Positions 1,440 through 53,269 of a stretch of 64,000 bases of DNA are shown here, in pieces (positions within the stretch are counted from its first letter, which is position 1; every line of letters starts with the position of its first letter). The translations under genes were made by a program, and so were the position numbers. The stretch lies in sequence record ON286972. The stretch is one strand, 5' to 3'. A model generated the notes under the pieces. That model was not told the origin of the DNA. It saw only the letters and a program-made list of their open reading frames with translations, and made no database searches. The stretch comes from Escherichia phage A4.

Positions 1440-1460
1440 TATTGACTATCCTCATACAAT

Positions 1461-1476
1461 TATATCAAGTATTTAT
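1461..1476 (-). promoter_or_regulatory. late-promoter-like motif
   Basis: Minus-strand ATAAATACTTGATATA upstream of the partial fibre gene. Confidence 0.4.
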
Positions 1477-1478
1477 TT

Positions 1479-1512
1479 TAAGAAAAAGAAAAGGCCAACC
1501 ATAGTTGACCTT
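1479..1512 (-). terminator. rho-independent terminator
   Basis: 9-bp stem AAGGCCAAC/GTTGACCTT (one wobble) followed on the minus strand by a U-rich run. Confidence 0.5.
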
Positions 1513-1520
1513 AGTGTTTA

Positions 1521-2309
1521 TTAATTACGTACTGGGATCTTAGATTGATCTGGATATACAAAAGTTGCTGCTTTTTGTGCATCAAAAATAGTAGTTGCTG
1601 CATCAATTGCAGTTTGTTGTGCAGTTGCTGCATCAAAGTAACCGTCGATTTGTGCCAATAGACCATTGAAAATTTCAACCATCTCATCACCATCAACTGT
1701 TACAATCTCACCACTATCTAGATAGATATTAATAGTTTGGGAACCATTAATCGCTTGTGTATAATAGTTGTTTAACATCTGACGACCATTAACATCACTA
1801 GGGAATGTTACATCAACTGTTCCGTCAGCATTTTTATAATGATAACCACTATTAATTAAATTATCTCGTTCATATGCGGTTCTTTGCTTCAAATCAGCTT
1901 TAACATCAGCCAAATCCATATCAATGTAGGTTTGTGTTTTTACTGCTGTTAATGCTGCATATGGTGCTACTTCGGTTTCGTTAAATGTAACTACTGCATC
2001 ACCTTCAATTTTGCGATATTCAAGGTATTCACCCTTTGAATTTCTATCGCCAACAGATACATATTCTAACCACCAAAATCCTTCTTTCTTGCGAACTTCA
2101 TCAGCATTTTGTGGGATTACTGCATTTGGGGTTATTTTTATTCCATACAATGGTCTAATATCACTATATGTGTAATGATATTTACCATTAGGATCATTGG
2201 GTGGTTGTGGACTAAATGAAAGACCTTTTACATTTTTTGGATTTGAAATAATGCTTCCTAGTTTATAATCTGCTGTTGAACTACCACTTACATATGTAAA
2301 TTGAGCCAT
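1521..2309 (-). CDS. hypothetical protein in fibre locus (fibre accessory or distal subunit)
   Basis: 262-aa ORF between two fibre genes with hairpins on both sides; no motif recognised. Confidence 0.35.
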   Translation of the reverse strand: MAQFTYVSGSSTADYKLGSIISNPKNVKGLSFSPQPPNDPNGKYHYTYSDIRPLYGIKITPNAVIPQNADEVRKKEGFWWLEYVSVGDRNSKGEYLEYRKIEGDAVVTFNETEVAPYAALTAVKTQTYIDMDLADVKADLKQRTAYERDNLINSGYHYKNADGTVDVTFPSDVNGRQMLNNYYTQAINGSQTINIYLDSGEIVTVDGDEMVEIFNGLLAQIDGYFDAATAQQTAIDAATTIFDAQKAATFVYPDQSKIPVRN

Positions 2310-2346
2310 AATATTACCTCATTAAAAATTAAATTATTTACAAAGA

Positions 2347-2368
2347 GGTACAGGAAAAATCCTGTACC
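2347..2368 (-). terminator. intergenic hairpin (possible terminator)
   Basis: GGTACAGG-aaaaat-CCTGTACC between the two fibre genes; weak U-tract. Confidence 0.35.
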
Positions 2369-2380
2369 AATTATTTTATA

Positions 2381-7918: not shown

Positions 7919-7965
7919 TCATTTCCCTCCATTTGGGTAAAATTAAAATACTTATTAACTGTGTT

Positions 7966-7985
7966 AATATGTAATTATTTATTTG
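7966..7985 (-). promoter_or_regulatory. late-promoter-like motif (variant)
   Basis: Minus-strand CAAATAAATAATTACATATT upstream of the 1845-aa fibre gene. Confidence 0.3.
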
Positions 7986-7993
7986 TATATATG

Positions 7994-8025
7994 AAAAAGC
8001 CAGGCACTAAGACATCATACCTGGC
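7994..8025 (-). terminator. probable terminator
   Basis: GCCAGG...CCTGGC stem with large loop, then UUUUU on the minus strand. Confidence 0.4.
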
Positions 8026-8032
8026 ATAAATC

Positions 8033-8935
8033 TTATTTCCCAGCGATAACAATCTTACCACTGAATTGTTCATCAGATACAAAAGTAACATTACCATCTG
8101 TATCAATTTGTGTATCCACGAATACCAAATCAAACGGTGCAGATGCTGTTGAACCAGGTACATCATTACCATAGATTGCCACGTACAAAGAATCAGGACT
8201 TTGTTTATGTGTATCAGCAGTGACAGTGTAAGTGAATTTATCAGCAGCAGCAATCCAGTCTGCTTTGTTAATCAATTTTCCGTATGGGGTAGTCATAGCG
8301 GTTGCTCCTATAATATTAACTTTAACCTCAGTAATACCATCTGGGAGGCCAAGCATTTTAATTGTAATATCCCCAAATCCAGACACTGTAATTTCGGAAT
8401 TAACCACACTACGAATATTTGGATTACCGTCTGTTGGTGTATCTTCCATTTGAACTAAAATGTCACGACCACGGTCATGTTGTGATTCAGGAATGGTATA
8501 TGTATATTCATCGACTGTTCCAGGAATAAGAACAAATGCTGCAACAGGGACAGAGAATGAAGTTACATAAGGACTATCGGTTACTGGACCACCACCATTA
8601 AATGGTTTCCAAATCCCAAGGTCTTTAATATATATTTGAACGATGTTGGTTGCATCAACCATAAAATAAACATCACCATCAGTTCCTAGTGTATCAGCAG
8701 GAGCGATATCACCACGCAAAATACCACTTGCACCACTACCACCATGAGCATTAAAATATGCTAAGGTTACTAGGTGTGTGTTTGCGGTTGGGTCACCAGC
8801 AGAAACCGGAAGAAGTCTTGTTCCAGAATAATCTTGGATTTGCACAATATCACCATTTGTTGTGAATTGTGCACCATTTTTACCTAGAATAAATTTCTTC
8901 TTCAAAGTTCCTTCTAAATTAGAAAAAACTGCCAT
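8033..8935 (-). CDS. tail fibre / tailspike protein (short paralogue)
   Basis: 300-aa ORF; N-terminus MAVFSNLEGTLKKKFILGKNGA is near-identical to the N-terminus of the adjacent 723-aa protein. Confidence 0.5.
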   Translation of the reverse strand: MAVFSNLEGTLKKKFILGKNGAQFTTNGDIVQIQDYSGTRLLPVSAGDPTANTHLVTLAYFNAHGGSGASGILRGDIAPADTLGTDGDVYFMVDATNIVQIYIKDLGIWKPFNGGGPVTDSPYVTSFSVPVAAFVLIPGTVDEYTYTIPESQHDRGRDILVQMEDTPTDGNPNIRSVVNSEITVSGFGDITIKMLGLPDGITEVKVNIIGATAMTTPYGKLINKADWIAAADKFTYTVTADTHKQSPDSLYVAIYGNDVPGSTASAPFDLVFVDTQIDTDGNVTFVSDEQFSGKIVIAGK

Positions 8936-8952
8936 TTTGAAATATCTCCTTA

Positions 8953-11124
8953 TTATGGAAGTGTAATGTATGTAATTGGGGATTCGGCTAACAATGGAGT
9001 CCCATCAGGGAAAGCAGTTTTTATTTCGTCTGCTATATCAATGCAAAATACCGAGTTGACCACGTATGTAGCTCGTGTTATATGAGTGTGGAGATCAGTC
9101 CCATTTTCACCAGCACCAGGAATTACAATTCTTGTACCTGCTGCTTTAGCATATTGGTTTGTACCCCATGCAGTGTTATGTGTTCGAATAGTTTTAGCAC
9201 CAACTACTGCTGCTTTAAGCTGTTCATATTTTCCTACGAATGCACCAGCTACTGTTACTACATATTTACCCCCAGATTGTTTGTGTAAAATTGTTCCTTT
9301 GGGGAAATATCTACCACCTGGGAATTCATCATAAGGTAGATAATATTGCTCCGTGACTGGTATCAGTACTGGGCCACGGTGACCAGTTCCATCTATTTCA
9401 GTTGTTACCGTGAAGTTATTACCAGATTGATCTATTCTATCAACATACATTCGTGAGAATGAATAATTTGATATATTAGCGTCATCTTGAACTATATTAC
9501 CAATCCAACTGGTATATGTATAATTAGTTCTGGTATAAACGCCACCACCTTCACCATCTTGATATTGACCAATTACATCTAAATTCTTTGTATAAATTTT
9601 ACTGAATTTTGATGATGATGGTAATCCACGCCAATATAATTTTTCACAAGTTATATTGTGCATATCAGTTTCGTTAGTCCATGCGTTTGCACCGGATGTG
9701 TATATTTCTATACTAGATTCAGGAATGAAAACGTTTTGAACTTTAAAATCTTTTGGTGGACCTGCATACCATGCATATTGGTGTGTTGCATCAGCAGGGT
9801 TAACACCCCATGTAAATTTAATCATTCTGTTTGTTGGTGCAGTTGCTGGATCATCCAAATAGCGACCAGTTAATCCGTCAACAACAAAATCTTGACATCC
9901 ATAAGTGATGATACCTGCGGCAGTTAAGCCAGTTCCAGTTGATATTGTGGTTGATGGAAATGTCTCATTATCTATTATATTAAAATTCTTACCGACTTCA
10001 ACGTGTATACATTGACGACAGTTATATACTCTATTTCGAGCAATAGTGAAGTTTTTAACATATTGACTATCTGGAATATCAACTCCATATGGACCTTTAC
10101 CAGCAACACCGATACCGATACCCCAGTTTGATAGTGGGATTGGAGCGTTAGTACCATCAACGTTTTCAATATGGTTTCCTTCAATGATTAGACCATCAGT
10201 GAAGTGTCTTGAAACTACGTTTAATTCAATACCATCACCATAGATATCGTGAATATGGTTATATGCATAGCGAGCATATTTTACTATCTCACCACTACCA
10301 CCTTGCTGTAGAACACCAAAGTTAACATCGTACATTTCATTGAAACAAAAGTCGAGAATACCTTCTGAAGTTAAATCACGCATAAAGAATGCACAGGTGA
10401 ATGTTGTACCATAAAAGCGGTTGAAATAGAACTTACCATTACCACCAGAAAACTGAATATAACTACGAGCAATGTTTGCCCCTTGTATTTTACAGTTGGT
10501 TGCTGATATCATTGTTTTACCAGTGCCAGTTAATGTGCCACCATACCATTCAATATTTTCAAAATATATTGCTTTGGATAAACGATAAACACCTTTACCT
10601 TGTATTTGGATATCATGAGCTTTAGCGTAATCAGCACAAGCTTGAACTGCGTCAGTATCATCAGCAATACCATCACCGATAGCACCAAATTCTTCAGGTG
10701 TTATATAATACAAAGCTTGTTGTAGTGTTCCACCAGAAACCAAACCAATATAATCAGAACCATTAGTACTGGATAATACTTTAGTATTAACATACATTGA
10801 TTTTATCCATGCACCATTCTTCTTAGCGAAAATATCTAGGATACCACCACTTTCTTGGTCTAATTGCAAATAAGTATAATTATTCTTACCAAGACTATTA
10901 TCTGGGATTTCATTCCCAAATAATACGGTTGGGTGGTCAGCGAGATACTTTGCAGTAATCGCTGAATTATCATTAATCGGTTCACCAACTTGTACGGGCA
11001 ATAAGATGCTTCCGAAACTATCTGTAATAGACAGGGAATTGTTAGCATAATTAATTAATGCCCCATTTTTACCAAGTATAAACTTGGTTTTCATTGTCCC
11101 TTCAAAGTTAGAAAAAACTGCCAT
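8953..11124 (-). CDS. tailspike protein with probable parallel beta-helix (putative depolymerase)
   Basis: 723-aa ORF; shared N-terminal anchor MAVFSNFEGTMKTKFILGKNGA; central region has periodic hydrophobic/Asn/Gly turns (IIEGNHIENV..., FTIARNRVYNC...) typical of pectate-lyase-fold tailspikes. Confidence 0.5.
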   Translation of the reverse strand: MAVFSNFEGTMKTKFILGKNGALINYANNSLSITDSFGSILLPVQVGEPINDNSAITAKYLADHPTVLFGNEIPDNSLGKNNYTYLQLDQESGGILDIFAKKNGAWIKSMYVNTKVLSSTNGSDYIGLVSGGTLQQALYYITPEEFGAIGDGIADDTDAVQACADYAKAHDIQIQGKGVYRLSKAIYFENIEWYGGTLTGTGKTMISATNCKIQGANIARSYIQFSGGNGKFYFNRFYGTTFTCAFFMRDLTSEGILDFCFNEMYDVNFGVLQQGGSGEIVKYARYAYNHIHDIYGDGIELNVVSRHFTDGLIIEGNHIENVDGTNAPIPLSNWGIGIGVAGKGPYGVDIPDSQYVKNFTIARNRVYNCRQCIHVEVGKNFNIIDNETFPSTTISTGTGLTAAGIITYGCQDFVVDGLTGRYLDDPATAPTNRMIKFTWGVNPADATHQYAWYAGPPKDFKVQNVFIPESSIEIYTSGANAWTNETDMHNITCEKLYWRGLPSSSKFSKIYTKNLDVIGQYQDGEGGGVYTRTNYTYTSWIGNIVQDDANISNYSFSRMYVDRIDQSGNNFTVTTEIDGTGHRGPVLIPVTEQYYLPYDEFPGGRYFPKGTILHKQSGGKYVVTVAGAFVGKYEQLKAAVVGAKTIRTHNTAWGTNQYAKAAGTRIVIPGAGENGTDLHTHITRATYVVNSVFCIDIADEIKTAFPDGTPLLAESPITYITLP

Positions 11125-18049: not shown

Positions 18050-20335
18050 ATGAATTTAACACAGCTATTCAAAAGCAGCGACGACCTTGCAACCTCTATG
18101 GGTCATACTTTCTTGACAATCGATCACATCAGTGCTACAGTGCTGACAGTGGATAGCATTATTGATGTATTTGGGACAATGAACGTTGACGCAACGAAAG
18201 TGCGTGATCGCTTGATTGAATATCTGAAAAATACCAATGTTCCACACGCACCACGCAGCACTATGGGGGAAGAAGTTAATCGCACTACACTAATCGTCAA
18301 TCGTGTAATGCAAGAACTATCTAAGAAATCTGTCATCGAACAACTCAAACGTGACGATTTCTCAATTGATGCATTCTTTGTACTGTTTGAATGTTTGTCA
18401 TTCCCAAACACTGCATTAGAAGCAGCATTGTTGGAAGAGGGTGTAACTCGTACTGAAGCGGCCCGTACTCTTCAGAAATATGTAGAATCTCTTGATTCTG
18501 AAATTAACCTACAAAGCATCGCTGATGAACCTACTGGGGAGAAAAAGGTGGCTCAACAACAACCTGCATCAAAACAGAAATCAATCGAAGATTACACGAC
18601 CAACCTAACACAGTTGGCTAAAGATGGTAAACTGGACCCAATGATTGGTCGTCAAAAAGAACTGGACGCACTAATTGAAACTCTGGCTCGTAAAACTAAG
18701 AAGAATGCTATTCTGACTGGTGAAGCTGGTGTTGGTAAAACTCAGATTGTTGACGGTCTAGCACAAGCCATTGTTGATGGTAATGTACCAGAACATCTAC
18801 AAAACATTGAGATTTTATCTCTTAACGTTGGTGCACTAACTGCTGGTACTAAGTATCGTGGTGAATTCGAAGAACGTATTGATAATCTTCTCAAAGAACT
18901 GAAGAAACGTGAAAATACAATCGTGTTCATTGACGAAATCCATATCATGGTAGGTGCAGGTTCTGCAAGCAACGGTTCAATGGATATGAGTAACATGTTG
19001 AAACCAGCACTATCTCGTGGTGAGATTCGTGTAATCGGTGCAACTACTTATGATGAATACCGTAAAAACATCGAGAAAGATAGTGCATTGACTCGTCGTT
19101 TCATGAAAATTGACGTAGTTGAGCCAACTATTGAAGAAACTCGTGCGATTGTAAATGGTCTGCAAGGTACATATGAGAAATTCCATAACGTAACTTTCAG
19201 TACTGAAGCAATGGATGCGATTGTGTCTTTGAGTGATAAGTTCCTGAAGAACAAACACTTCCCAGACAAAGCAATCGACCTTATGGATGCAGCAGCAGCT
19301 AAGAAACGTTCACGCGATGAATCTGATAATGTGATTTCACTACGCACAATTCAAGAAGTTGTTGCGGGAATTGCAAACTTGGATATCAACGTAGTAGCTT
19401 GTACTGAAACTGAACGTATGAAGTCACTACCAGCAGCACTTCGTAGCCGTGTATTCGGTCAAGAAGAAGCAGTGGAGAAATTGGTTGATAACGTAATGGT
19501 TGCACGTGCAGGACTTCGTGAGAAAGCAAGTGTTCAGGGTGCATTCATGTTTGTCGGTCCGTCTGGTACTGGTAAAACTGAAATCACTAAAGCACTAGCC
19601 GATGCAATGGGTTCTGAACTGATTCGCTTCGATATGTCTGAATTTTCACAAGAACATACCGTTGCAAAACTAATTGGTTCACCTCCTGGCTATGTTGGTC
19701 ACGATACTGGTAATGGTCTGCTACTCGACAAAATTGAGCAATTCCCGAATGCAGTTCTACTGCTGGACGAAATTGAAAAAGCACACCCTAAAGTACTGCT
19801 AACCTTCCTACAGGTTCTGGATGAAGGTCACCTAACTGGTTCACAGGGTAAAACTGTATACTTTAACAACGTAACAGTTATTATGACAACCAACTTGGGT
19901 GCAGCAGATGCAAATAAACGTAGTCTGGGTTTGAGTGGTGGTGAAACAGCACAGGAGAAGGCAGTGAAAGCTTTCCTACCACCTGAATTCCTAAACCGTA
20001 TCGATAGCATCGTGAAGTTTAATGAGCTATCCAGTGAAGCTATCCAGAGCGTTATTGATAAGTTCATGGCTGGTCTAAATGAGCAAATCAAAGAGCGTGG
20101 CGTGAAAGTAACACTGACTAAAGCGGCACGTGAATGGTTAGAAGCAAATGGTGTTCAGCCTGGAATGGGTGCACGTCCAATGAAACGTACAATCGAGCAG
20201 AACATCCGTGTTCCTCTGGCTAAAGAAATGCTATGCGGTTCACTGGTAAATGGTGGTAACGTAACATTTGATGTGATTAACGGAAAGTTGGGTATCAAAC
20301 CAAAACGTCAAGTTAAAACCCCATCTGTAGTGTAA
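18050..20335 (+). CDS. clpA: ClpA-like AAA+ unfoldase (Hsp100/Clp ATPase, two AAA+ modules)
   Basis: Walker A GEAGVGKTQ and GPSGTGKTE; Walker B IVFIDEIH and LLLDEIEKAH; N-domain present; no ClpB middle coiled coil; LGL tripeptide (KRSLGLSGG) at the ClpP-docking IGL-loop position; reads close to E. coli ClpA along its length. Confidence 0.9.
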   Translation: MNLTQLFKSSDDLATSMGHTFLTIDHISATVLTVDSIIDVFGTMNVDATKVRDRLIEYLKNTNVPHAPRSTMGEEVNRTTLIVNRVMQELSKKSVIEQLKRDDFSIDAFFVLFECLSFPNTALEAALLEEGVTRTEAARTLQKYVESLDSEINLQSIADEPTGEKKVAQQQPASKQKSIEDYTTNLTQLAKDGKLDPMIGRQKELDALIETLARKTKKNAILTGEAGVGKTQIVDGLAQAIVDGNVPEHLQNIEILSLNVGALTAGTKYRGEFEERIDNLLKELKKRENTIVFIDEIHIMVGAGSASNGSMDMSNMLKPALSRGEIRVIGATTYDEYRKNIEKDSALTRRFMKIDVVEPTIEETRAIVNGLQGTYEKFHNVTFSTEAMDAIVSLSDKFLKNKHFPDKAIDLMDAAAAKKRSRDESDNVISLRTIQEVVAGIANLDINVVACTETERMKSLPAALRSRVFGQEEAVEKLVDNVMVARAGLREKASVQGAFMFVGPSGTGKTEITKALADAMGSELIRFDMSEFSQEHTVAKLIGSPPGYVGHDTGNGLLLDKIEQFPNAVLLLDEIEKAHPKVLLTFLQVLDEGHLTGSQGKTVYFNNVTVIMTTNLGAADANKRSLGLSGGETAQEKAVKAFLPPEFLNRIDSIVKFNELSSEAIQSVIDKFMAGLNEQIKERGVKVTLTKAAREWLEANGVQPGMGARPMKRTIEQNIRVPLAKEMLCGSLVNGGNVTFDVINGKLGIKPKRQVKTPSVV

Positions 20336-20369
20336 AAAGAAAAGGAGAGCCATTGGCTCTCCTTTTTTG
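20336..20369. terminator. bidirectional rho-independent terminator, near-copy of 14601-14633
   Basis: aaaagaaaaGGAGAGCCattGGCTCTCCtttttt at the clpA / giant-gene convergent junction. Confidence 0.7.
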
Positions 20370-23300
20370 TTATTGAATATTCAATAGATTTTCTATATCA
20401 GTTCCAGTAATTGACAATCCATTTCTGAATGTATCTAATGGAATTGGTGGATAGAAGTTTTGATATTGAGTAAACTTATCAATGCTCCCCAAGTTCAATC
20501 CATTAAAGCTATAAGACGTTCCTTTAGTAAAATTATGTTCCGCACTATACATGACACCACGTAATAGACGGTCAGTGTTTCTTACCTGAACCTTCTCATA
20601 TCCAACCACAATAATATCATCATTCTGTGCCGCAGCACCTGACAGTACTGAATCAGTAATGATATATGGGCTTATTGAACGAGGTTTAGCAACATAAGTG
20701 ATTGCCTCATCTTCAACGGTTGTAATGTTAATTACACCACATCCTACTTCTTTGATGAACGTGTTATTGACCACAGGTTGTGCATACTGCCACACGCGAT
20801 CATAACTTAGTACTGGTTGAATAACATCAACATCGTATTCAAATACAGTGATTTCAATACCATCAGTCATTTTAGCTCGTACTAGTTCACCCAGGACACC
20901 TTTACCAGAGATTGGCTGATTGTAACCATTATCAATTGTAATACCATCAACTTCAAAAATCTCATTGGAAACTAACCACAAATCAATTTCATCAGGTGTG
21001 ATACCATCATTGAATTTACCACCATATAATGTTTCGTCATAGAATACTTCATAGTTCAATGCATGTATACTGTAATGACGATTATTTTCATATAGTTTAA
21101 GTCCATTGTCATCAAACTCAGGGTCTTGGAAAGTGCGGATTCTAACTAAGTTCATTGATAATGTATAAAAACGCTCATTACTTTCACGCTTAGTTATACT
21201 ATCAAACATTAACACTACACCATTACTATCAACCAACTCTACGTTACCATTACCCAATACACGTACTGTGTATAGTTTTGGTTTTTTAGAGGATTGGATT
21301 TTACTAGCACTTAATATAGTTACCCAGTTACCGTCTTGGAATCGTACATAATCTTCACCATCTGGCGTGAAAATCATAACCTTATCACCATCTTTCAAAC
21401 CTTCATCGTGAACCTTGATTTCAGTAATTGTTTTAATTTCTGAAATTGGGAAGAAGTATTTTTCAGATTCTTTGAACACATCTTTACCCATATTCTCAAT
21501 GACAATATCATATGATGGAATACTTACAACTGCTTCTGACATATTGTAAGGGTTTTGTACGATCATACCCTCAATCTGGAATCTACTTGTGTCTTTTAAT
21601 TGCTCTTGAGCAACTTCATCGAAACCGTAACCATCAACAGTGAAACGTAATTGTGCCATTGTTCTTCCTGATGGGTTTAGTTCAGAAATGTCGATGATAT
21701 AAGGATCAATCTCACTATCTTTAACTTCCCATTTAATGGATTTGGTTTGTGATTCCAATGCCAAGTTATCGAATGCATTCATATCATTGAAATATTTTGC
21801 AGTATTGATACTTTCCAGTACTTCAACATATGCAGAATACATTGGATTATTCTGGTCTTGTGGTAAATCATTTAAATCAATTTCAGCCAATACAACTGAT
21901 TCTCCGGTTGTTATGAATAAGTCTTCCATGAAATCAGATATGCTGTAACTTTCAGGAATCGGTAGATATTCACCTGCCGCATTCACAACATACACATATT
22001 TCCTTGGCATCATAACAAAAGCATACTTATCAACTGCACGATTACTTAAGATTTCTCTAGCAACATAATAATGATCTAGAATATTCTTATTAAATGTTTG
22101 TCGCATTGCAGATAACACATGAACGGTATCAGAATAATAACGGTCATTTAATGTGGTATCATACTTGTAGCAATAAACACCATATTCTATCTCTAGTATA
22201 TTACGAACTTGGTCTTCATTAGTAAACTCAGGGTGATTTTTCTTGATCATATCGACATATTTTTCATATAATTCAATACTAATCTCAAAATAACCATAGT
22301 TGTAATCACTACTTGCACTGAACCCAAAAGGTAGGCGAGTATTAGGATTATCATTATAGTTCGTACCCTTAAATGGACAACCAATCTCATTAGAAACCAT
22401 GTCATCAGATATATTCTTAAACATTTTCACACGAGTTGCTAATGTATTGTATTGAATATATTTCTTAACGTCTTCTAAAATGTTACTGTTGTTTGTATCA
22501 GCAGTTACCTGCTCCAAATCAGCAGTAAATTGGTCAGTCATTGCAATATCAGTTGAATGGGCTTTATACCATGCATCAATTCCTTTAATGACACCATTAC
22601 TAATATCCAAATCTGAATATTTGGTAGTCATTTCAATACCAATCTGTGAAATTAAGGTATTATTATCATATTCAGGGAATGTATAAACATATCTCTGTAA
22701 TTCATAATCATTTCCTATATCCGAAGCATTAGATTGATACTTACTATTGGTTGATTTCAACTCATCAATTGTATAATTACTATCATACGGGTCACATTGA
22801 ATATTATCATAATGCATAATAACGTCGATTTCTTGGAATCGTCTGTTAGGTGTGATAAAGTCACTTGGTAGTGAACCAATCTTTTCCCAACGTTGGGTTA
22901 CGTCATTAAATTGTGCATATTCTAAATCCCAAATGTCTTTTTCAGTCTTAACCCACACACCATCAACTAAAATATAGCCATCTGGGTCAAGGTCATTACT
23001 GATACCATTAATCAAATCATCATCAGAAGTTTTCTGTTCTATTTGAGAACGGATTTTGGTTCTGTATGGTTTAACTTCTTCGAAGTACTCAACAATTTGA
23101 TTAATCAAGTTGTCATTTGAGTAGTTTTGTACGAGAGATTGTTCTAAACCTACAATATAGATATATGAGGTTTTGAATACCCAGTCAACAACACTTTGTT
23201 CAGTGTGTACGTACTTAACCATATCAAAAACAATATTACTTTGATATAAGTTGAATGAATTTTTCAACAACGCTAACGCATTACGAACGTTAACCTCATG

Positions 23301-26300
23301 AGAATTCAAAGAACCATCATCATTGTAAACATTGTACCCAGAATATAACATTGAATTCAATTCAACTGTACTATTCTCACGTCCAATAGCTTTCCAGTAT
23401 ATATTATTACGAGATGCAGTCTTGATGTATAATGTCCAAACACCATCACTATCAGTTACACGGATAATATCACCAATTTGGTAATTTTTAGTGTTTGCGT
23501 CATCTAAACTAACTTCTTGTGTATATTCAGTGTTGCTATCGTATCCAGTATCGTACCAATCAGCCAGATTCCAGTACTGGGTCATATCCAAAGATGTACC
23601 AAGTGATTCTATGAAGTCAGCTTGTTTAATCATCTTGTGTTGACCTTCACCTCTATTTTCTAGAGTGATTGTAACAGTACTACCAACTGCACTTGGACTG
23701 TTCATCAATTGAATGTATCCATTTGGATCAATGTGAACAAAATATACTGAACTAGAAGATAATGGTGCTGGTAGAGTTCCGATGGAACTTACAAATACTG
23801 CATCATTCTCTTTAAAGCGGTTATCTTCTGGTGCAATTACCAATTCATTGTTAAATGATAGAACACGGAATGTAATATCATTTGGGTTCATTTTTAATGT
23901 TTTCACATTAAACACATCATTCATAACAACACTGTTAGTTGTGATGTTCTGTGAACGGTAAAAGTTATTTGCACTCTCAACAAACGCACGACGAGCTTCA
24001 ATGACATTCTGGAACCAAGTTTTATTAGAACCTAAACCAGTTTCAACTTTAGGATAAATTATTTCATTTACAACACCAGTTGAAGTAGTTTCTTGACCAA
24101 TTAGTGAGTTCCATAGTGAATTCCAAATATCTGGGTTAAAGTCATAACTATCACCTTCTTTACAGAGTTGATATTGATCATGCTTCAGTACTTCGATATT
24201 GTCATTTCTATATGAAATTGTCAAAATGCTTGTATCATCATTAACTTCAAATTGCATATTACTTAGAATGAAACTATTTTCATTAATAGGTGCAAACCAA
24301 GGAACATTCAATTGTGTTGGATCTTGAATAATACGTGCAATATCAGTACAAGACTTACTACGAGTAGTCATTGGTGGAACATAAATGGTATTACGAACCC
24401 AGAAATAATAACGAACTACATATGTATCAGTGATTGGATCATATTCCATAGATGAACTGTAGTTCTCATCCATTGCAATCCCACTTGGGAGATACATAGT
24501 ATTGTTTTTATTTTTATTGGCTTGTTCTGCACAATATTTTTCCCAGTTGTATGGTTCTACTGGTGAACTAACCCATTCTAGAACATCAATAACACTGTGT
24601 GGTAATAATTTACCCCAATTATAACGCTTATATTCATTAGTTGCTTTTACATCAACGTTACCATCCTCATCAAAGATTGGACGGGTATAATCCAGATAGA
24701 ATGCAGTGCTAGTGTTCCACCACACTTTACCTACCTTTTCAGCACCCCATGCTTGTAATAGTTCACCGTTACTGCTATACTGTGCTGGGTCCACTGGAGA
24801 GATGAAATCAACATCTTGCATTGCAACCCCAGGAATAACACCGTTAATTGGGTCAAACACATTCAAATACAATGCAGTAATGTTTGTTCTTTCATCATAC
24901 GTAGTAGGACGGTCAAACAAAGTGCTTTCAGGTGCACTGTAACTATATTTTTTAGCAATATATTCATCGCGTTCTTGTTGAGTACTAAATCTACTAACAT
25001 AACGATACAAACGTGGTGCTGATTCTACTGTTGAAAAGTCAATAGTAATGGAAGTGTCAAATGGCACTACCATAACTTTTGGATCTAGTCCAGAAGTGTA
25101 GTATTGGCATTCATCACGTAGGGCATCAGGCATAAAGTTTGTTTCATCAACAAAATAATAATAATCACCATCATTGAGTGGGATATCATCAGACAATAGT
25201 ACTTTACAATATTGCTCAGCATATGGATCTTCACTTTCAATTGGTGTAATAGAAACCATTGTAATACCAGTATCTACTAAATCATACACATTCCATTCGT
25301 TATTGATATCTTGGAACATCCAAACAGATGTTGGGATTTTACCAGAATTATTCATATAACTAATGCGGTCTTGATTTGCAGTTTCGTAATTTAATGTGGT
25401 ATAATCAATTTCATCTAGGGTTACTGGTCCAATATTAGGTAATTGGATATTCTCACTTCTCCCATTACGCATAGGGAATGAGAATTTACCTTTTGGACGA
25501 CTAATCCAGCGTGAATCTTCACCAATTTCACCATAATATACAATTTCATTCTCAGATTCAACCTTATCGGAATAACGGTCAAATGTAATCATTTGTGGTT
25601 GTTGTTTAAACTCATTATTAATTAGTTTAAATTGAAGATTTTTAACACCATCAATGTTACCATAAGAACCAACACGGAATGCCCATTCTTGTAATGCTTT
25701 ATACTCATCAGTATTATATGATTTAGATACACGTAATACTTTTTCTAGTACTTGGTTAGTGCCTTTATCATGAATAAAACCTTTATAGAAATCAATTCGA
25801 CCAGGCTCATTAGTGATCATACGTTGTAAGTAATCACGAGACTGATAGCCAATTAAGTGGTTTGAAAGTTCATTTAATTGAACATCACTAACTGGGGTTT
25901 CATTATCATAATACTGTTGGAAATTAGACACCAAAGTTTCAAATGATGGTAATGTACCAGCTTCTAGGATGATAAATCCAGGAGCTTGTAAACGTCCAGA
26001 CCATGAACCAGTGATATATCCATACAATTTAATCAATTCTTGAACTGCACCATAGGTTGGTTCATAGATATAATCACCGAAAATCGTCTGATCATCAAAA
26101 ATAACAGCATGTTCATAAGAACTGATACTTAAACGAATAAGTGCTATGCGTTTATTTGATTCTTCAGTAGTTCTTACCGTGAATATGTTACCAATACGAG
26201 ATGTTTCAATCTCAAATTGACGTATACCTTGGTTTGAATCATCTAATAATGACCAAACACCACCACTATTTTGTGCAATTGACTGAACTGAACCAAAATC

Positions 26301-29300
26301 TGTACCAAATTTAGCATTAATTGCTGATGGGGTACAAGAAATGAATTCACCAGTACTCAATTGTTGTTGACTCCAGATTAAAAAGTCTTTTGCAATTGTA
26401 TTCCAGTCCTGTTGGATACCAGATTCATCAACTTCTTCAAAAATCCAACCATGTTGCTTTAGATACTCACCATAACCACAAATAAATGTGTAAACTTCCT
26501 GGAAGGTATTCATCAAAGTTCCGTAAGGAATGGATGCATCATTTTTCCACTCATTATAATGAACAACATTACGATTATCAACTTTCAAAGATACTTTATG
26601 ACCGTTTTTAACAGGCAATTTATAATTGAATGTTGCAGAAACTAAATCATAACCATCAATTTGGTAAGCACTACCAGTCCAAGTAATTTTAATTGCACTC
26701 ATTTGCTCATTTCTAATATTATTAGAACGAACTAAACCGATAGATTGGTTTTCTTGTGAAATTAGACCAGTTGCTTCTGATGTAAATGTTAATTGATCAG
26801 CTTTAGTGAATCCACCTAGTTTATGACCCACATTAATATGAGAAGAACGAACAATTTCACCGTACTTAGTTGTAATATTTTTGTTTTGATACATCAAATA
26901 ATCACTAACAATCATTTGATAACCAATAACGCGAGTACTATTCTCACCATGTACGATTGTATCACTATTAAAGTTCAAACGTAAACGAGTATCACCATAT
27001 AAAAACTGTGGTTCATTACCAGATACAGTTTTTAATGTATTATTTCGGGTATCCCAGAAATAGTTTGTGAACTGTGCAGGTTTAGCTTTGAATAACATCA
27101 ATAATTCATCATATGCAAACATTGCTGTGTTCATATAAGTGAATTCCATATCACCCATATCACCATAAGTCCACGGTTCAGCACGATGATTTAGACTACC
27201 ATATACAAGACCTAAAACTTCAGGAGCAATGTACTCAATGACGCAAATATCAACACCAGATGCTGTCTGCTTGCCTGTTTTAGTGATCTTAAAGGGTTGT
27301 GTACCAAAACGTTTGTACTTGTCATATTGACCTTTACGTGCACCAAACAAGATAGTACCCGTTGAGCTATCACCTTTCTCGTTACCAACGTCCCATAACC
27401 CACTAGGAACCATGTTACCTTGTTCGTTGATAACTAATGCCTCATAAACATAAACAACATCACCATCACGTTCGCCAACTTGAACTGCGGTAGGTTCATA
27501 TTCCTGGTTCCACCAAACTGGACGTTGGGAGAAACCAAACATTTCCCACGGATGGGTTGCTGGGCGATATGTACCAAATTGGTCAGTGTAGATTGCTCGC
27601 CATGAACCACGGGCTGCTATTTGTGTTTGTTGACCATTAACCATATAATGTGTTCCAGTATAGTTCCAAGTCATCCAGTTATTTGGATCATAATCATGTG
27701 AACTGTTACTGATACCATTGGTTGCGATGAAGTTAATATAACCACGTAGTAGTAAGTTCTTTTTCTCTTCGTCATTATACTCTGTATCTCTGAAATACGG
27801 AGTCGGGAAAAGATCAGAAGCATCTAGCTTAGGTTGGTAATCTTCATCTTTGAAAATAACATCAATACTATTGAAAATTCTATTTTCTAACTCATATATA
27901 ACGTCATCCATTTTATCAACACCGTTTATTACACGGTATGCTTTAGTGATTGCACCTGTATGACTGATGTTATAACAGCTTTGCTTACTACCAGCATTCA
28001 AAAATGTTGCTTTTTCTGGAACGTGTGCTTTCAAAATACCCAAAAACTGTGGAGTTGGTGGTACAAACGCACGAATGAAGCCAGAAGTACTTGCTACGTT
28101 ATCATAATAGAATGGGAAAGTATTATCATGACCCATATTAATAATTGTTAGAATTTCATCAACAATATTAGAAGCATTATTAGCTAAGAAGTTTGCTGGG
28201 TTCTCATTGTACAAACGGATCATTTGTGTATTGAACTTGTTTACGAAACGGAAATATTCGGATTGCATAAACAATACAGATTCAAATAGGTCAATATCTT
28301 CATTTGCAGAATGTGCCATTAACGGTAGCATTGATGCTTCGTTTTGAATAATCTTAGTACCAACGGAGTTATCCACTAAACCTTTAGACAAACGATCTTC
28401 GTAGTCGTTGAAATCATCAACGGAACCACTGGTGATATTCTTTTGAATGATATCTTTAAAATGTAATGTAAAATTACTTTGGTTGATATAAAGAATATTA
28501 TCGTTGTATGGGTTATTTTGTAAATTGATTGGGATTTCATATGCACCCAACTCTTTATTTGGTACTTCAGTACTGCTGTATGTTCTAATTTGAATCACTG
28601 ATTCATCTTTAAGAGCTACATCTTCACCTAAAGTGATGCTTTGAACCTTGTTATTATATACATGACGTGTATAATCGGTTACATCAACTCCATCAACTTG
28701 AATTTCAATGATTTCGGTACTCTTACCATCAATAATTTTCTGGGCTAATTCAAATGTGCGATTGAAACGTTCACTTTGAATACCTTCACCACTAATTACA
28801 TGCCAATCCATATAGGTTTGACGTTCTTCTTTGTAATATTGATAGGTACGATCCACTTCAGTAACATATGCATACATACCTTCTAATGGATTTTTAAAGT
28901 TTTCCATTTCGAATACAGTATTGAATACACGATACATATCAGTGTGTTCTATTTGTGGCGTTTGTTTAACGAATTGCTTTGAATCTTCCTTAGAACGAAC
29001 CCAATCGGTCTTAAGGTGTAGTTCATTATCTTTACCAACTACATTATAGTAGTACAATCCAGAAATTTCAGTTTCAACACCCAAATGATCATATGTATAA
29101 CGAACACTTTGTAGGAAGTTTTCGTACATATAGTAATTATAATTACCTAGTTCGATATTATAACCATATACTTTATCAGTGCCGTAATTATAGTTGATTT
29201 TAAAACCAAATAGGGATGAACCAACAAAATTACTTGATGGATAAATTGTAGAATCATTTAATTTAAAACCATCACGGTCATATAATTGGAATTGTGGGAA

Positions 29301-30347
29301 TACGTTTACACCAGATTTTGTTTGTGCTCTAATCCAGTTAACACCATTCCAGTACATGGATGTATTTTTATATACATTACCATCACGCACCAAAATAACA
29401 TCACCATTATGTGGCTCACCACTTGGGCGGTCGTCAGTTTCTTCATCTGGGTCCAATGCTAGACCATATGTGCGAGAACCATCTTGCATTTTCTTAATAA
29501 AAACTTTATAAATGCGGTTGTTTTCACCAACGTTACCTATACTAGTGAAAAGAATACGCATACCATCTTGTGGAATAATCCCGTCAATACGAATACCATC
29601 ATTTACGTCTTTTTGGACGATATCTTCTGGTTTAATTGTATCAGAGAAAAGATCCACAACACCACGGAAATGTGTCCCGTAGTTAATTAATTCGATATTT
29701 TTATTGTACTCGATGATTGGTGCTTGTGCACGAATAAAACGAGTATCTTGTGTCATGTCAGCAGTTAGTACTGTTCCATCTTCTAGTGTTTGACCAATAG
29801 TATACCAAAAGTTCTGTAGGGACCATGTGTTTCCGTTATCAGCACCACGTTCCATAACAATAAAGTCAGGAGTTGTGATACCATAACTATTTTTACTATC
29901 CCACAAATAGGAACTATAGTTGGTCATTTTGTTTGGGTTAATTGGCGGTGTCCAAGAATAGAACTTACCAGAAAATAGACGGCTCTCGTTTGAAGTTAAC
30001 GTGCCGTAGTGTTCCATGTAGCCAACCAAATCATCATAAAATTGAAGCGAACGAATGCTTGTGTCATCATTACGAGACACATATGCTGTTGATAATTGAT
30101 ATAGCTGACGTTCAACGGTTGCTTCGTCAAGGAAAATCTTAGCAGATGCAGCAGGAGAACCCATATCACCAATATATCCATCAACGATTTCATTATCCGC
30201 TGGATTGAACCATTGTTGAATTACATCATCACTAACCTTTTGAATGTCTTCTAAGCCTTGCATCCATTCAGGTAATCTTTTAATGAAAAGCTTCTGTTGT
30301 ACTGCTTCTGCCGTTTTAGTTGGTAGAAACTTAAAATTATTAGTCAT
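20370..30347 (-). CDS. giant baseplate-associated structural protein (at the T4 gp7 / P2 gpI position)
   Basis: ~3325-aa continuous ORF with no low-complexity repeats. Start moved from 30377 to the ATG at 30347, which has a GGAG Shine-Dalgarno 8 nt upstream; the 30377 ATG has none. Assignment by position after the gp25 and J-like genes only. Confidence 0.5.
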   Translation of the reverse strand: MTNNFKFLPTKTAEAVQQKLFIKRLPEWMQGLEDIQKVSDDVIQQWFNPADNEIVDGYIGDMGSPAASAKIFLDEATVERQLYQLSTAYVSRNDDTSIRSLQFYDDLVGYMEHYGTLTSNESRLFSGKFYSWTPPINPNKMTNYSSYLWDSKNSYGITTPDFIVMERGADNGNTWSLQNFWYTIGQTLEDGTVLTADMTQDTRFIRAQAPIIEYNKNIELINYGTHFRGVVDLFSDTIKPEDIVQKDVNDGIRIDGIIPQDGMRILFTSIGNVGENNRIYKVFIKKMQDGSRTYGLALDPDEETDDRPSGEPHNGDVILVRDGNVYKNTSMYWNGVNWIRAQTKSGVNVFPQFQLYDRDGFKLNDSTIYPSSNFVGSSLFGFKINYNYGTDKVYGYNIELGNYNYYMYENFLQSVRYTYDHLGVETEISGLYYYNVVGKDNELHLKTDWVRSKEDSKQFVKQTPQIEHTDMYRVFNTVFEMENFKNPLEGMYAYVTEVDRTYQYYKEERQTYMDWHVISGEGIQSERFNRTFELAQKIIDGKSTEIIEIQVDGVDVTDYTRHVYNNKVQSITLGEDVALKDESVIQIRTYSSTEVPNKELGAYEIPINLQNNPYNDNILYINQSNFTLHFKDIIQKNITSGSVDDFNDYEDRLSKGLVDNSVGTKIIQNEASMLPLMAHSANEDIDLFESVLFMQSEYFRFVNKFNTQMIRLYNENPANFLANNASNIVDEILTIINMGHDNTFPFYYDNVASTSGFIRAFVPPTPQFLGILKAHVPEKATFLNAGSKQSCYNISHTGAITKAYRVINGVDKMDDVIYELENRIFNSIDVIFKDEDYQPKLDASDLFPTPYFRDTEYNDEEKKNLLLRGYINFIATNGISNSSHDYDPNNWMTWNYTGTHYMVNGQQTQIAARGSWRAIYTDQFGTYRPATHPWEMFGFSQRPVWWNQEYEPTAVQVGERDGDVVYVYEALVINEQGNMVPSGLWDVGNEKGDSSTGTILFGARKGQYDKYKRFGTQPFKITKTGKQTASGVDICVIEYIAPEVLGLVYGSLNHRAEPWTYGDMGDMEFTYMNTAMFAYDELLMLFKAKPAQFTNYFWDTRNNTLKTVSGNEPQFLYGDTRLRLNFNSDTIVHGENSTRVIGYQMIVSDYLMYQNKNITTKYGEIVRSSHINVGHKLGGFTKADQLTFTSEATGLISQENQSIGLVRSNNIRNEQMSAIKITWTGSAYQIDGYDLVSATFNYKLPVKNGHKVSLKVDNRNVVHYNEWKNDASIPYGTLMNTFQEVYTFICGYGEYLKQHGWIFEEVDESGIQQDWNTIAKDFLIWSQQQLSTGEFISCTPSAINAKFGTDFGSVQSIAQNSGGVWSLLDDSNQGIRQFEIETSRIGNIFTVRTTEESNKRIALIRLSISSYEHAVIFDDQTIFGDYIYEPTYGAVQELIKLYGYITGSWSGRLQAPGFIILEAGTLPSFETLVSNFQQYYDNETPVSDVQLNELSNHLIGYQSRDYLQRMITNEPGRIDFYKGFIHDKGTNQVLEKVLRVSKSYNTDEYKALQEWAFRVGSYGNIDGVKNLQFKLINNEFKQQPQMITFDRYSDKVESENEIVYYGEIGEDSRWISRPKGKFSFPMRNGRSENIQLPNIGPVTLDEIDYTTLNYETANQDRISYMNNSGKIPTSVWMFQDINNEWNVYDLVDTGITMVSITPIESEDPYAEQYCKVLLSDDIPLNDGDYYYFVDETNFMPDALRDECQYYTSGLDPKVMVVPFDTSITIDFSTVESAPRLYRYVSRFSTQQERDEYIAKKYSYSAPESTLFDRPTTYDERTNITALYLNVFDPINGVIPGVAMQDVDFISPVDPAQYSSNGELLQAWGAEKVGKVWWNTSTAFYLDYTRPIFDEDGNVDVKATNEYKRYNWGKLLPHSVIDVLEWVSSPVEPYNWEKYCAEQANKNKNNTMYLPSGIAMDENYSSSMEYDPITDTYVVRYYFWVRNTIYVPPMTTRSKSCTDIARIIQDPTQLNVPWFAPINENSFILSNMQFEVNDDTSILTISYRNDNIEVLKHDQYQLCKEGDSYDFNPDIWNSLWNSLIGQETTSTGVVNEIIYPKVETGLGSNKTWFQNVIEARRAFVESANNFYRSQNITTNSVVMNDVFNVKTLKMNPNDITFRVLSFNNELVIAPEDNRFKENDAVFVSSIGTLPAPLSSSSVYFVHIDPNGYIQLMNSPSAVGSTVTITLENRGEGQHKMIKQADFIESLGTSLDMTQYWNLADWYDTGYDSNTEYTQEVSLDDANTKNYQIGDIIRVTDSDGVWTLYIKTASRNNIYWKAIGRENSTVELNSMLYSGYNVYNDDGSLNSHEVNVRNALALLKNSFNLYQSNIVFDMVKYVHTEQSVVDWVFKTSYIYIVGLEQSLVQNYSNDNLINQIVEYFEEVKPYRTKIRSQIEQKTSDDDLINGISNDLDPDGYILVDGVWVKTEKDIWDLEYAQFNDVTQRWEKIGSLPSDFITPNRRFQEIDVIMHYDNIQCDPYDSNYTIDELKSTNSKYQSNASDIGNDYELQRYVYTFPEYDNNTLISQIGIEMTTKYSDLDISNGVIKGIDAWYKAHSTDIAMTDQFTADLEQVTADTNNSNILEDVKKYIQYNTLATRVKMFKNISDDMVSNEIGCPFKGTNYNDNPNTRLPFGFSASSDYNYGYFEISIELYEKYVDMIKKNHPEFTNEDQVRNILEIEYGVYCYKYDTTLNDRYYSDTVHVLSAMRQTFNKNILDHYYVAREILSNRAVDKYAFVMMPRKYVYVVNAAGEYLPIPESYSISDFMEDLFITTGESVVLAEIDLNDLPQDQNNPMYSAYVEVLESINTAKYFNDMNAFDNLALESQTKSIKWEVKDSEIDPYIIDISELNPSGRTMAQLRFTVDGYGFDEVAQEQLKDTSRFQIEGMIVQNPYNMSEAVVSIPSYDIVIENMGKDVFKESEKYFFPISEIKTITEIKVHDEGLKDGDKVMIFTPDGEDYVRFQDGNWVTILSASKIQSSKKPKLYTVRVLGNGNVELVDSNGVVLMFDSITKRESNERFYTLSMNLVRIRTFQDPEFDDNGLKLYENNRHYSIHALNYEVFYDETLYGGKFNDGITPDEIDLWLVSNEIFEVDGITIDNGYNQPISGKGVLGELVRAKMTDGIEITVFEYDVDVIQPVLSYDRVWQYAQPVVNNTFIKEVGCGVINITTVEDEAITYVAKPRSISPYIITDSVLSGAAAQNDDIIVVGYEKVQVRNTDRLLRGVMYSAEHNFTKGTSYSFNGLNLGSIDKFTQYQNFYPPIPLDTFRNGLSITGTDIENLLNIQ

Positions 30348-30380
30348 GTATAGGACTCCATAAATTCGTTCATTCATTTG

Positions 30381-30392
30381 ATTTATTTATGC
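30381..30392 (-). promoter_or_regulatory. late-promoter-like motif before the giant gene
   Basis: Minus-strand CATAAATAAAT ~35 nt upstream of ATG 30347. Confidence 0.4.
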
Positions 30393-30395
30393 TAT

Positions 30396-30419
30396 AAAAA
30401 AGGCGACCCGAAGGCCGCC
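30396..30419 (-). terminator. terminator/attenuator between J-like gene and giant gene
   Basis: Minus-strand GGCGGCC-UUCG-GGUCGCC (one G-U) followed by UUUUUU. Confidence 0.5.
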
Positions 30420-30428
30420 ACGATTTTA

Positions 30429-33941: not shown

Positions 33942-33957
33942 ATATAGAAATATTTAT
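33942..33957 (-). promoter_or_regulatory. late-promoter-like motif
   Basis: Minus-strand ATAAATATTTCTATAT upstream of the J-like gene. Confidence 0.45.
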
Positions 33958-33992: not shown

Positions 33993-34388
33993 TTATAATT
34001 TAGATGTTGTGAATGTCGCCATTCTATTATTACTTCTGGCATCAAACACTATAGTTAGTTGTTCTAATTTATCAAGCATTACATACTCTAAAATTATATC
34101 CAAACGATAACCATATTCAACATTACTAACTGTTAGATTTTTTAAATTCAAACGTGGGTCTAATGAAATAATTCTACGAGCGTCAGCTTCTAAAAGATTT
34201 TTTGTATTATAACCATCAAGTTCAAAAATCAAATCCCAAGCAATGAAACCATAATCAGCATCAAATGCTCTTTCACCTTTCTTTGTATTGAAGTGGTTCA
34301 TCAAATCCTGTCTCACCAACTCAGCATCATACAGAGTTTGTGTTTTACCCACAACAGGAGTAGAGAAACCTTTAAAAACTATTGCCAT
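33993..34388 (-). CDS. gp25: baseplate wedge protein gp25 (gpW family)
   Basis: TKKGERAFDADYGFIAWDLIFE aligns with T4 gp25 TRKGSRPFDPEFGCDLSDQLFE; size (131 aa) fits. Confidence 0.8.
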   Translation of the reverse strand: MAIVFKGFSTPVVGKTQTLYDAELVRQDLMNHFNTKKGERAFDADYGFIAWDLIFELDGYNTKNLLEADARRIISLDPRLNLKNLTVSNVEYGYRLDIILEYVMLDKLEQLTIVFDARSNNRMATFTTSKL

Positions 34389-40822: not shown

Positions 40823-40839
40823 TTGAAGTATTTATAGGT

Positions 40840-40867: not shown

Positions 40868-40919
40868 ATTAGCGATGGCACACGGATTGTGCCTATTGGT
40901 CATTACATGGAGAGTTACA

Positions 40920-41759
40920 ATGATAAACAAGCCGAAGCGTAAGAAGTATCTGAATAACGCAGACTTATTACGTGAAATACATAAAAGTAAGATATCATAC
41001 TGCTGGCTTTTGGATAAAAGTTATGGTATGTATGATTATATTGTGTTTCATGAGTCTGAAATCACAGAAGAATTACTTGAAAAGGCAAAAGCAGCACGAA
41101 TCAAACGTTTGAATAATGAAATGCTTGATAGTGTTCGCGAAAAAGAGAATATGAGTGCTAAGAAAGCAAAGGAATATGCTGATGAGCACGGTCTATTCGT
41201 AAATGATGTACCACTGGATGAAGTGGTGATTAGAGTTATCACTGATGAGCACATTCCACCAGATACACGAGTGAATTTTGAACCATTTAAACATTATATC
41301 GTTGATAATGAAGGTATTCTGTATGAAGTTGTTCGTTCACATTGGAAAGGCGACTTGGAAGATGGCGATTTCTGCTTAACACATGGTAAAATCACAAATG
41401 AACTCGGTAAAATGTTCATTAAACTAGCCGAAGAGATCTCTCACAAATCTAACTACAGAAATTATACGTATTTGGATGAAATGATGGGTGATGCTAGAAT
41501 ACAATTAGTTAAAAATGCACTTCTCTTTAAAGAGAGTATCTTGTATAAGAAAGATAAACCCGCTGTCCAACTAAATCCTTTCTCATACTATACGTCATTC
41601 GTTAACAATAGCTTCCGTTCTATTTTGAACAGTGAGAAGAATGTACGTAACATTCGCGACGACCTTCTTGAGATGCATGGTTTTACACCATCACATACAA
41701 GACAGATTGAAATCGAAATGAATATGATTGAAAGGAAAAATGACGATGGCACTATTTGA
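40920..41759 (+). CDS. gp55: late-transcription sigma factor gp55-like
   Basis: KPKRKKYLNNADLLREI aligns with T4 gp55 KPKYNYVNNKELLQAI, and NPFSYYTSFVNNSFRSILNSEK with [23 protein letters not shown]. Start set at ATG 40920 (GGAGAG Shine-Dalgarno) instead of 40875. ~280 aa versus ~185 in T4. Confidence 0.75.
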   Translation: MINKPKRKKYLNNADLLREIHKSKISYCWLLDKSYGMYDYIVFHESEITEELLEKAKAARIKRLNNEMLDSVREKENMSAKKAKEYADEHGLFVNDVPLDEVVIRVITDEHIPPDTRVNFEPFKHYIVDNEGILYEVVRSHWKGDLEDGDFCLTHGKITNELGKMFIKLAEEISHKSNYRNYTYLDEMMGDARIQLVKNALLFKESILYKKDKPAVQLNPFSYYTSFVNNSFRSILNSEKNVRNIRDDLLEMHGFTPSHTRQIEIEMNMIERKNDDGTI

Positions 41760-53239: not shown

Positions 53240-53269
53240 TAATAAATAAAACAAAGAAAGGAGATCATT

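Follow-up and report, generated by a model that had tools for sequence, protein, structure and literature searches.

Contractile injection systems are believed to share a universal wedge core, which consists of (gp6)2-gp7 together with gp25 and gp53. In phage T4, gp7 follows gp6 in the genome, and gp7 homologues all carry the domains PF21428, PF21456 and PF21427. The same slot, after a J-type gene, is taken in phage P2 by gpI (176 amino acids), in phage Mu by gp48 and in the type VI secretion system by TssG (Tail_P2_I, PF09684). We have analyzed a stretch of 64,000 nucleotides from Escherichia phage A4 (sequence record ON286972, hereafter the window) in which this slot is occupied by a single giant gene. 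Our analysis indicates that the giant protein is rather likely to be a protein of the baseplate periphery (a wedge or arm protein) that takes the place of gp7 and probably also occupies a large part of the volume given to gp8-gp11 in T4.

The gene order supports this assignment. The minus-strand cluster starts with genes for a 252-amino acid virion protein, a 104-amino acid gp53-like wedge subunit (phrog_7145) and a 716-amino acid virion protein, and continues with an 887-amino acid gp5-like hub, a 162-amino acid lysozyme, gp25, a 1,154-amino acid gp6/J-like wedge subunit and the giant gene, which therefore stands where gene 7 stands in T4 and gene I in P2. The gp6/J-like protein matched phrog_10646 over its full length and phrog_219 with an E-value of 1e-21, has a precomputed DUF8360 assignment as well as a weak match to TIGR02243, and aligned collinearly by its N-terminus with the N-terminus of T4 gp6. 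Phage PBECO4 shows the same order around the giant gene, with the gp6-like gene upstream and a convergent ClpB-like gene downstream, and the slot is conserved in three out of four distant relatives examined (P0078, P0099 and P0076; 26-30% identity, contigs of 229-481 kb). The location after the gp25 and J-like genes, on which the preliminary description of this DNA had based its gp7/gpI assignment, thus applies to the window and PBECO4 as well as to these three relatives. A Pfam scan detected no gene with gp7 or gpI domains in the clusters of the window and of the distant relatives, and no equivalents of the T4 genes for gp8, gp9, gp10 and gp11 were apparent in them. We counted the lack of a rival gp7 candidate in favor of the giant protein having the role of gp7.

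From its nucleotide sequence, the phage can be classified as a Rak2-like jumbo myophage with about 77% identity to Asteriusvirus. Megablast matched 54 phage records, with identities of 60-80% throughout; Asteriusvirus genomes (PBECO4, 121Q and others) ranked first at ~77.5%. The best nucleotide match to the giant gene covers query bases 2412-10050 only, with at most 77.7% identity over 76% of the gene, and the 3' 2.4 kb are too diverged for a nucleotide match. An identical giant protein is encoded on an 80-kb Logan contig (ERR10789687). Its orthologues are PBECO4 gp538 (YP_009150852), CBB_236, phAPEC6 gp245 and PA5oct gp128. The first of these is syntenic, 3,333 amino acids long and annotated 'virion structural protein'. 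CBB_236, a 'structural protein' adjoining the gp6-like CBB_237, was recovered from virions with 21 peptides (PMC5259590), and phAPEC6 gp245, a 'hypothetical protein' of 381.88 kDa adjoining gp244 ('baseplate wedge'), was found in the virion proteome with 17 peptides (PMC7247149). The mass spectrometry of these two orthologues indicates that the giant protein is a virion protein. PA5oct gp128 belongs to the two largest proteins of its phage and its gene is adjacent to those of gp129 (wedge), gp130 and gp133 (hub) (PMC7318152), and in the study of CBB 'the largest ORF' was used merely for genome alignment (PMC5259590).

Presence in virions and the rank of largest gene in the genome, as for the tape-measure gene orf181 of phiKZ (PMC12676376), would also fit a giant virion protein of another kind, such as a tape measure, an ejected internal protein, an N4-type virion RNA polymerase or a tail 'whisker', CBB and phAPEC6 having tail whiskers to which no protein is assigned (PMC5259590, PMC7247149). 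This explanation seems highly improbable, given that the gene lies inside the wedge cluster, that the predicted structures are globular and not fibrous with about 25% helix, that the chain has no transmembrane-like segment and that the protein is conserved in relatives RaK2 and PA5oct, whose descriptions mention no whiskers. A tape measure should be an extended, predominantly helical chain, often with hydrophobic segments; the helix content of the two models is 25-26% and the maximum 19-residue Kyte-Doolittle mean 1.53. As for a virion RNA polymerase, Pfam and the sequences of all PDB chains gave no match to the T7-like RNA polymerase domain, and neither phmmer nor a profile of 33 sequences matched any PDB chain sequence, the N4 polymerase included.

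The family to which the giant protein belongs is large. The product matched phrog_10938 collinearly over its full length (residues 1-3322 against profile positions 1-3324; E = 0, 5221 bits), a family annotated as virion structural protein and filed by PHROGs under 'head and packaging', a category that is probably wrong. A word-indexed search yielded 174 homologues, and the 120 listed were all 3,128-5,233 amino acids long. When a profile built on alignment positions 1-454 was run against 1.84 billion representatives of clusters at 50% identity, 1,624 clusters were recovered at E <= 1e-3, of which 811 reached E <= 1e-30, with lengths up to 6,281 amino acids. Apparently full-length members range from about 2,200 to 6,300 amino acids. 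The short matches are either collinear N-terminal fragments or versions of ~2,200-2,800 amino acids which end at the end of the conserved core or lack inserted domains. No Pfam or NCBIfam model exists for the family. The giant protein is thus a divergent new member of a known, uncharacterised family, and its gene is already annotated in relatives. The preliminary description had asked whether it might be a conserved and characterised giant wedge protein of close relatives: it proved to be conserved and annotated as structural there, not characterised as a wedge protein. A term search of papers on RaK2 and the phiKp24 structure, of a 2026 jumbo-phage review and of a 2026 Asteriusvirus genome paper revealed neither an assigned function nor any discussion of it, and neither a solved Rak2-like baseplate nor a characterised giant wedge protein was found in the searchable literature.

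The reading frame itself is intact. The longest version, starting at the first ATG, spans 20370..30377 on the minus strand (3,335 amino acids), and translation from the ATG at 30347 runs through 3,325 codons without an internal stop, giving a calculated mass of 382.1 kDa. We consider 30347 the better start, because it is preceded by GGAG, because the N-termini of most orthologues match its equivalent (consensus 'MxNxFKFQP') and because an ATG at 30377, only 6 nucleotides after the promoter-like box and at the very 5' end of the transcript, would be leaderless. Among the matches listed, ~56 homologues of 3,310-3,361 amino acids are collinear with the product at 100% coverage and 44-73% identity, and the frame is therefore no artefact of a frameshift or of assembly. 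The protein has an ordinary composition, is not of low complexity and contained no internal repeats on self-comparison. The ~10-kb uninterrupted minus-strand frame of about 3325 codons, its Shine-Dalgarno-supported start and its lack of low complexity were therefore all correctly called in the preliminary description, and no error splitting the frame, which would have spoken against it, was apparent.

No relationship with gp7 could be detected. A Pfam scan of the giant protein gave no match at E <= 0.01, nor at E <= 10 with the gp7 and gpI models included; NCBIfam gave none, residues 1-150 matched neither collection, and scans of Pfam, NCBIfam and PHROGs with relaxed E-values on N- and C-terminal pieces returned phrog_10938 only. 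Alignment of the giant family by hhalign with T4 gp7 alone and with a 24-sequence gp7 alignment gave a probability of about 0.2%, and its N-terminal and full alignments gave 0.2% and 0.3% against a 25-sequence alignment of P2 gpI. The comparison with gp7 homologues by which inserted domains were to be mapped revealed no similarity. Two resemblances noticed by eye were rejected as statistically unsupported. The pattern 'NFEK...DFY..KG(T)' at residues ~1468-1530 had been likened to 'NFEKFC...DFYSTKGIEASYKF' of T4 gp7, and a sub-profile of residues 1380-1630 gave 0.2% in hhalign; the N-terminal 'LLP...E...WxNP' had been likened to P2 gpI, with hhalign values of 0.2-0.3%.

These results bear on the view of the preliminary description, that of a true gp7. 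In such a case the protein would be extremely diverged, its gp7 core being buried in residues 1-100, 1201-2125 or ~2376-2445 and the rest consisting of accreted domains. The order and overlap of the genes match T4 6/7 and P2 J/I, the neighbour is a recognisable but very distant relative of gp6, so that its partner could be equally diverged, and the conserved N-terminal helices and residues 1201-2125 lie outside the confident models. Against this stand the hhalign values for gp7 and gpI, also with the sub-profile of residues 1380-1630, and the silence of the corresponding Pfam models, and we regard such an origin as unlikely. It differs from the peripheral wedge protein that we favor in ancestry only.

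The structure of the giant protein was predicted with AlphaFold as two models, which rest on alignments of 21-23 sequences. The model of residues 1-1200 (21 sequences) reached a mean predicted local distance difference test (pLDDT) of 81.4 and a predicted template modeling score of 0.73, poor prediction being limited to residues 1-100 and the cut C-terminal end. Foldseek found no match to it among 350,542 PDB chains at E <= 1e-3, and no similarity to the fold of gp7 in solved baseplates was seen. Both models are of mixed alpha/beta type (25-26% helix and 23-24% strand by DSSP) with globular domains, so that the several globular domains anticipated in the preliminary description take the form of a multi-domain, non-repetitive chain.

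Conservation is unevenly distributed along this chain. BLAST coverage mapping indicated that residues 1-2450 are conserved in essentially all members, and identity to the nearest relative falls from 78% (residues 1-1200) to 61% (residues 2401-3325). Tail proteins that are anchored inward and interact outward are usually built in this way, with a conserved N-terminal part (here 2,450 residues) followed by a variable C-terminus. In distant members, FG-GAP, CBM5/12, TIG and E1-FCCH domains are inserted at varying places; these are surface-type insertions, which we counted for a location at the baseplate periphery. The variable C-terminus and the carbohydrate-binding and Ig-like insertions of distant members would also suit a giant fibre-like or receptor-binding appendage on the baseplate, a counterpart of P2 gpH (whose gene follows I), the role of gp7 then being missing or carried out by an unrecognised small protein. 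We think this quite improbable: conservation extends over 74% of the chain among relatives at 25% identity, unlike in receptor-binding proteins; the protein has no repeats, coiled-coil, beta-helix or collagen-like features and is globular, with 25% helix and 23% strand; and separate tail fibre and depolymerase genes are present in the window and in RaK2 (PMC10253068).

Within the core, the strongest conservation coincides with very low confidence of the monomer models. Residues 2386-2395 and 2426-2435 ('VKPYRTKIRS') have conservation values of 0.93-0.94 and are kept even at 25% identity, and the most conserved blocks (residues 21-60, and residues 2386-2445 at window positions 23013-23192) were predicted at pLDDT 24-58. 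Residues 21-60 and 2376-2445 are therefore candidate partner-binding interfaces that may fold only on their partner, possibly the gp6-like dimer. Near the C-terminus, a motif I.I..E.I...RG..GT was found in 44 of the 120 family members, near and distant ones alike; neither the T4 gene 5-12 region nor any other open reading frame of the window contains it, and it matched no named domain.

Taken together, these data are compatible with the following arrangement. The giant protein would be present in one copy per wedge, that is six per virion, and would join an inner wedge of two gp6-like subunits, gp25 and the gp53-like protein, as gp7, gpI and TssG do elsewhere. Its conserved 2,450-residue part might form, in a single chain, most of the outer baseplate, a space that T4 fills with gp7, gp8, gp9, gp10 and gp11, and the fast-evolving C-terminal ~870 residues could point outward, docking lineage-specific branched tail fibres or touching the cell surface. 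In T4, the peripheral wedge proteins together amount to about 560 kDa per wedge, and a chain of 382 kDa is of a comparable order. The gene with its late-type transcription signals, its conserved position, the size of the family, its pattern of conservation and the presence of orthologues in virions are shown by our data or by published work; we infer that the protein lies in the baseplate, in how many copies, that it binds the gp6-like protein and what its C-terminus does.

Several points weigh against this arrangement. No similarity to gp7, gpI or TssG was detected by sequence, profile or fold. In the fourth distant relative, P0111, the giant gene does not adjoin a gp6-like gene and is the exception to a position downstream of a gp6/J-type gene inside a gp53-gp5-gp25-gp6 cluster, which is that of the T4 gp7 family. 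Residues 1201-2125 are outside the modelled stretches, and the low pLDDT of the conserved segments could stem from the cutting of the chain or from the shallow alignments. Finally, six chains of 382 kDa must fit a rather modest baseplate, since those of Rak2-like phages are reported to measure about 35 x 15 nm (PMC3622015, PMC5259590).

The region between the gp6-like and giant genes suggests how the latter is expressed. The heptamer ATAAATA is under-represented in the window (20 copies against 32 expected from shuffles), and 17 of the 20 copies lie 7-58 nucleotides upstream of an open reading frame start on the same strand, for instance at 30384-30390, 33951-33957, 40829-40835 and 53242-53248. 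This placement marks ATAAATA as a genuine promoter-type motif, with the behavior of a T4-type late promoter box, and it bears out the late-type motif of its own that had been ascribed to the giant gene. A late sigma factor is annotated in PBECO4 at a position syntenic with window 40875-41759. The hairpin at 30419-30396 (folding free energy -15.6 kcal/mol, z -3.2) had been described as a hairpin or attenuator; the hairpin was confirmed, but since it precedes the promoter box it is a terminator of the gp6-like gene and not an attenuator of the giant gene. The G17 record has a terminator annotated beneath its match to this region. The PBECO4 stem reads GGCGTTC/GAACGCC where the window has GGCGGCC/GGTCGCC, with compensatory changes and an unchanged loop and T-run, and the two phages have the same promoter box and the same initial part of the leader (CATAAATAAATCAAATGAATGAACGAATT). 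With terminators on both flanks and a promoter box of its own, the giant gene forms a separate late transcription unit. In distant relatives (L003, L004, and the P0078 contig at about 10001), the start of the giant gene overlaps the stop of the gp6-like gene, which suggests translational coupling as in T4 6/7 and P2 J/I. The terminator and late promoter between the two genes in the window and in PBECO4 (30396-30428) imply that their expression has become uncoupled in this lineage. Downstream of the giant gene in the structural module of L003, a 686-amino acid gene (26547-28607) carries Hint/homing-endonuclease intein domains. The features of the locus are collected in Table 1.

Table 1. Positions in the window of the giant gene, of segments of its product, of flanking signals and of neighbouring genes.
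Feature	Position	Strand	Remarks
Giant gene	20370..30347	minus	3,325 codons plus stop (20370-20372); 382-kDa product
In-frame 10-codon extension up to the first ATG (30377)	30348..30377	minus	Probably untranslated: no Shine-Dalgarno sequence, 6 nucleotides after the promoter box
Shine-Dalgarno sequence GGAG	30356..30359	minus	8 nucleotides 5' of ATG 30347; GGAG also in PBECO4
Late-type promoter box CATAAATAAAT	30381..30391	minus	Resembles the T4 late promoter sequence, TATAAATA; identical in PBECO4
Intrinsic terminator of the upstream gp6-like gene	30396..30419	minus	GGCGGCC-TTCG-GGTCGCC, then T6; 7-bp GC-rich stem
Terminator between the giant gene and the convergent ClpB-like gene	20340..20366	minus	12-bp stem
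Conserved core, residues 1-2450	22998..30347	minus	Shared family-wide, even at 25% identity
Lineage-specific C-terminal region, residues 2451-3325	20373..22997	minus	BLAST matches in the closest group only
Helical N-terminal segment, residues 1-100	30048..30347	minus	Conserved; invariant I22, P26, P49, G60, R80, Q84; low-confidence prediction; candidate partner-binding element
'YFEEVKPYRTKIRSQIEQKTS', residues 2421-2441	23025..23087	minus	Most conserved block of the C-terminal half; pLDDT 24-35
'IIVVGYEKVQVRNTDRLLRGVMYSAEH', residues 3245-3271	20535..20615	minus	Degenerate copy of the C-terminal motif I.I..E.I...RG..GT
gp5-like hub, 887 amino acids	34925-37588	minus	OB fold, DUF2345, M23 peptidase-like stretch, C-terminal lysozyme
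Second, stand-alone lysozyme gene, 162 amino acids	34402-34890	minus	Between the hub gene and gp25
gp25/gpW wedge subunit gene	33993..34388	minus	PF04965, E 3.9e-9
gp6/J-like wedge subunit gene, 1,154 amino acids	30429..33893	minus	DUF8360; directly upstream partner

On the other side, the giant gene converges with a plus-strand gene (18050-20335) for a ClpB/ClpA-type double AAA+ protein of 761 amino acids (AAA_2, E 2.6e-50; AAA_lid_9; ClpB_D2-small), and the two genes share their terminator. The PBECO4 counterpart is annotated 'ATP-dependent protease'. This ClpB-like unfoldase might act as a chaperone of the 382-kDa structural protein. Three fibre-type proteins are encoded elsewhere in the window: a tail fibre protein of 1,845 amino acids (2381-7918, minus strand), which matched phrog_4549 in seven stretches and is therefore internally repetitive; a depolymerase-like 'colanic acid degradation' protein of 723 amino acids with a tailspike N-terminal module (8953-11124, minus strand); and a tail fibre protein of 536 amino acids (58336-59946, plus strand). 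All three are candidate partners of the variable end of the giant protein.

The window adds a divergent orthologue and not a discovery; the interest lies in a large family, so far with neither model nor structure, at the position of gp7. Relatives of gp25, gp53 and gp6 are recognisable here, yet the occupant of the gp7 slot is a chain of 382 kDa in which no relation to gp7 could be detected, and the third of it that was modelled with confidence, a stretch of 1,200 residues, has no match in the PDB. Tentatively, one may envisage that the family is not a diverged gp7 at all but an independent, single-chain outer baseplate, in which a 2,450-residue scaffold of largely unseen folds replaces gp7-gp8-gp9-gp10-gp11. 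If so, this single-chain solution would extend over a very large jumbo-phage clade, uncultured for the most part (more than 1,600 clusters at 50% identity). The giant protein probably makes up most of the baseplate mass in Rak2-like phages, which are therapeutic candidates against E. coli, Klebsiella, Salmonella and Pectobacterium, and it is a natural candidate for the attachment site of branched depolymerase fibres. A structure would tell whether a non-homologous protein has replaced part of the 'universal' wedge core, and where host-range modules dock.

Among described systems, the closest counterparts are PBECO4 gp538, CBB_236, phAPEC6 gp245 and PA5oct gp128, which have the same length (~3,330 amino acids) and the same neighbours; compared with this group, the copy in the window diverges most from the records of the phage collection. 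Peripheral baseplate proteins of other large myophages (PHIKZ027 and PHIKZ087 of phiKZ, the baseplate arm protein of phage 812) and the N-terminal anchor domains of branched tailspikes (CBA120 TSP4, the N-terminus of T7 gp17) also belong to the nearest systems. With P2 gpI, Mu gp48 and TssG the giant protein shares its slot, and the overlap of giant and gp6-like genes in distant relatives recalls those of T4 genes 6/7 and P2 genes J/I. With T4 gp7 it shares a gene directly after that of a gp6-type protein, late expression and, presumably, the part of a single-copy wedge subunit linking the inner wedge to the periphery. T4 gp7, with 1,032 amino acids, has 31% of its length, close to the third estimated beforehand. 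The giant protein is thus 3.2 times longer and bears no detectable similarity to gp7, and where T4 builds its periphery from separate gp8, gp9, gp10 and gp11, the clusters around the giant gene have no apparent equivalents of these genes.

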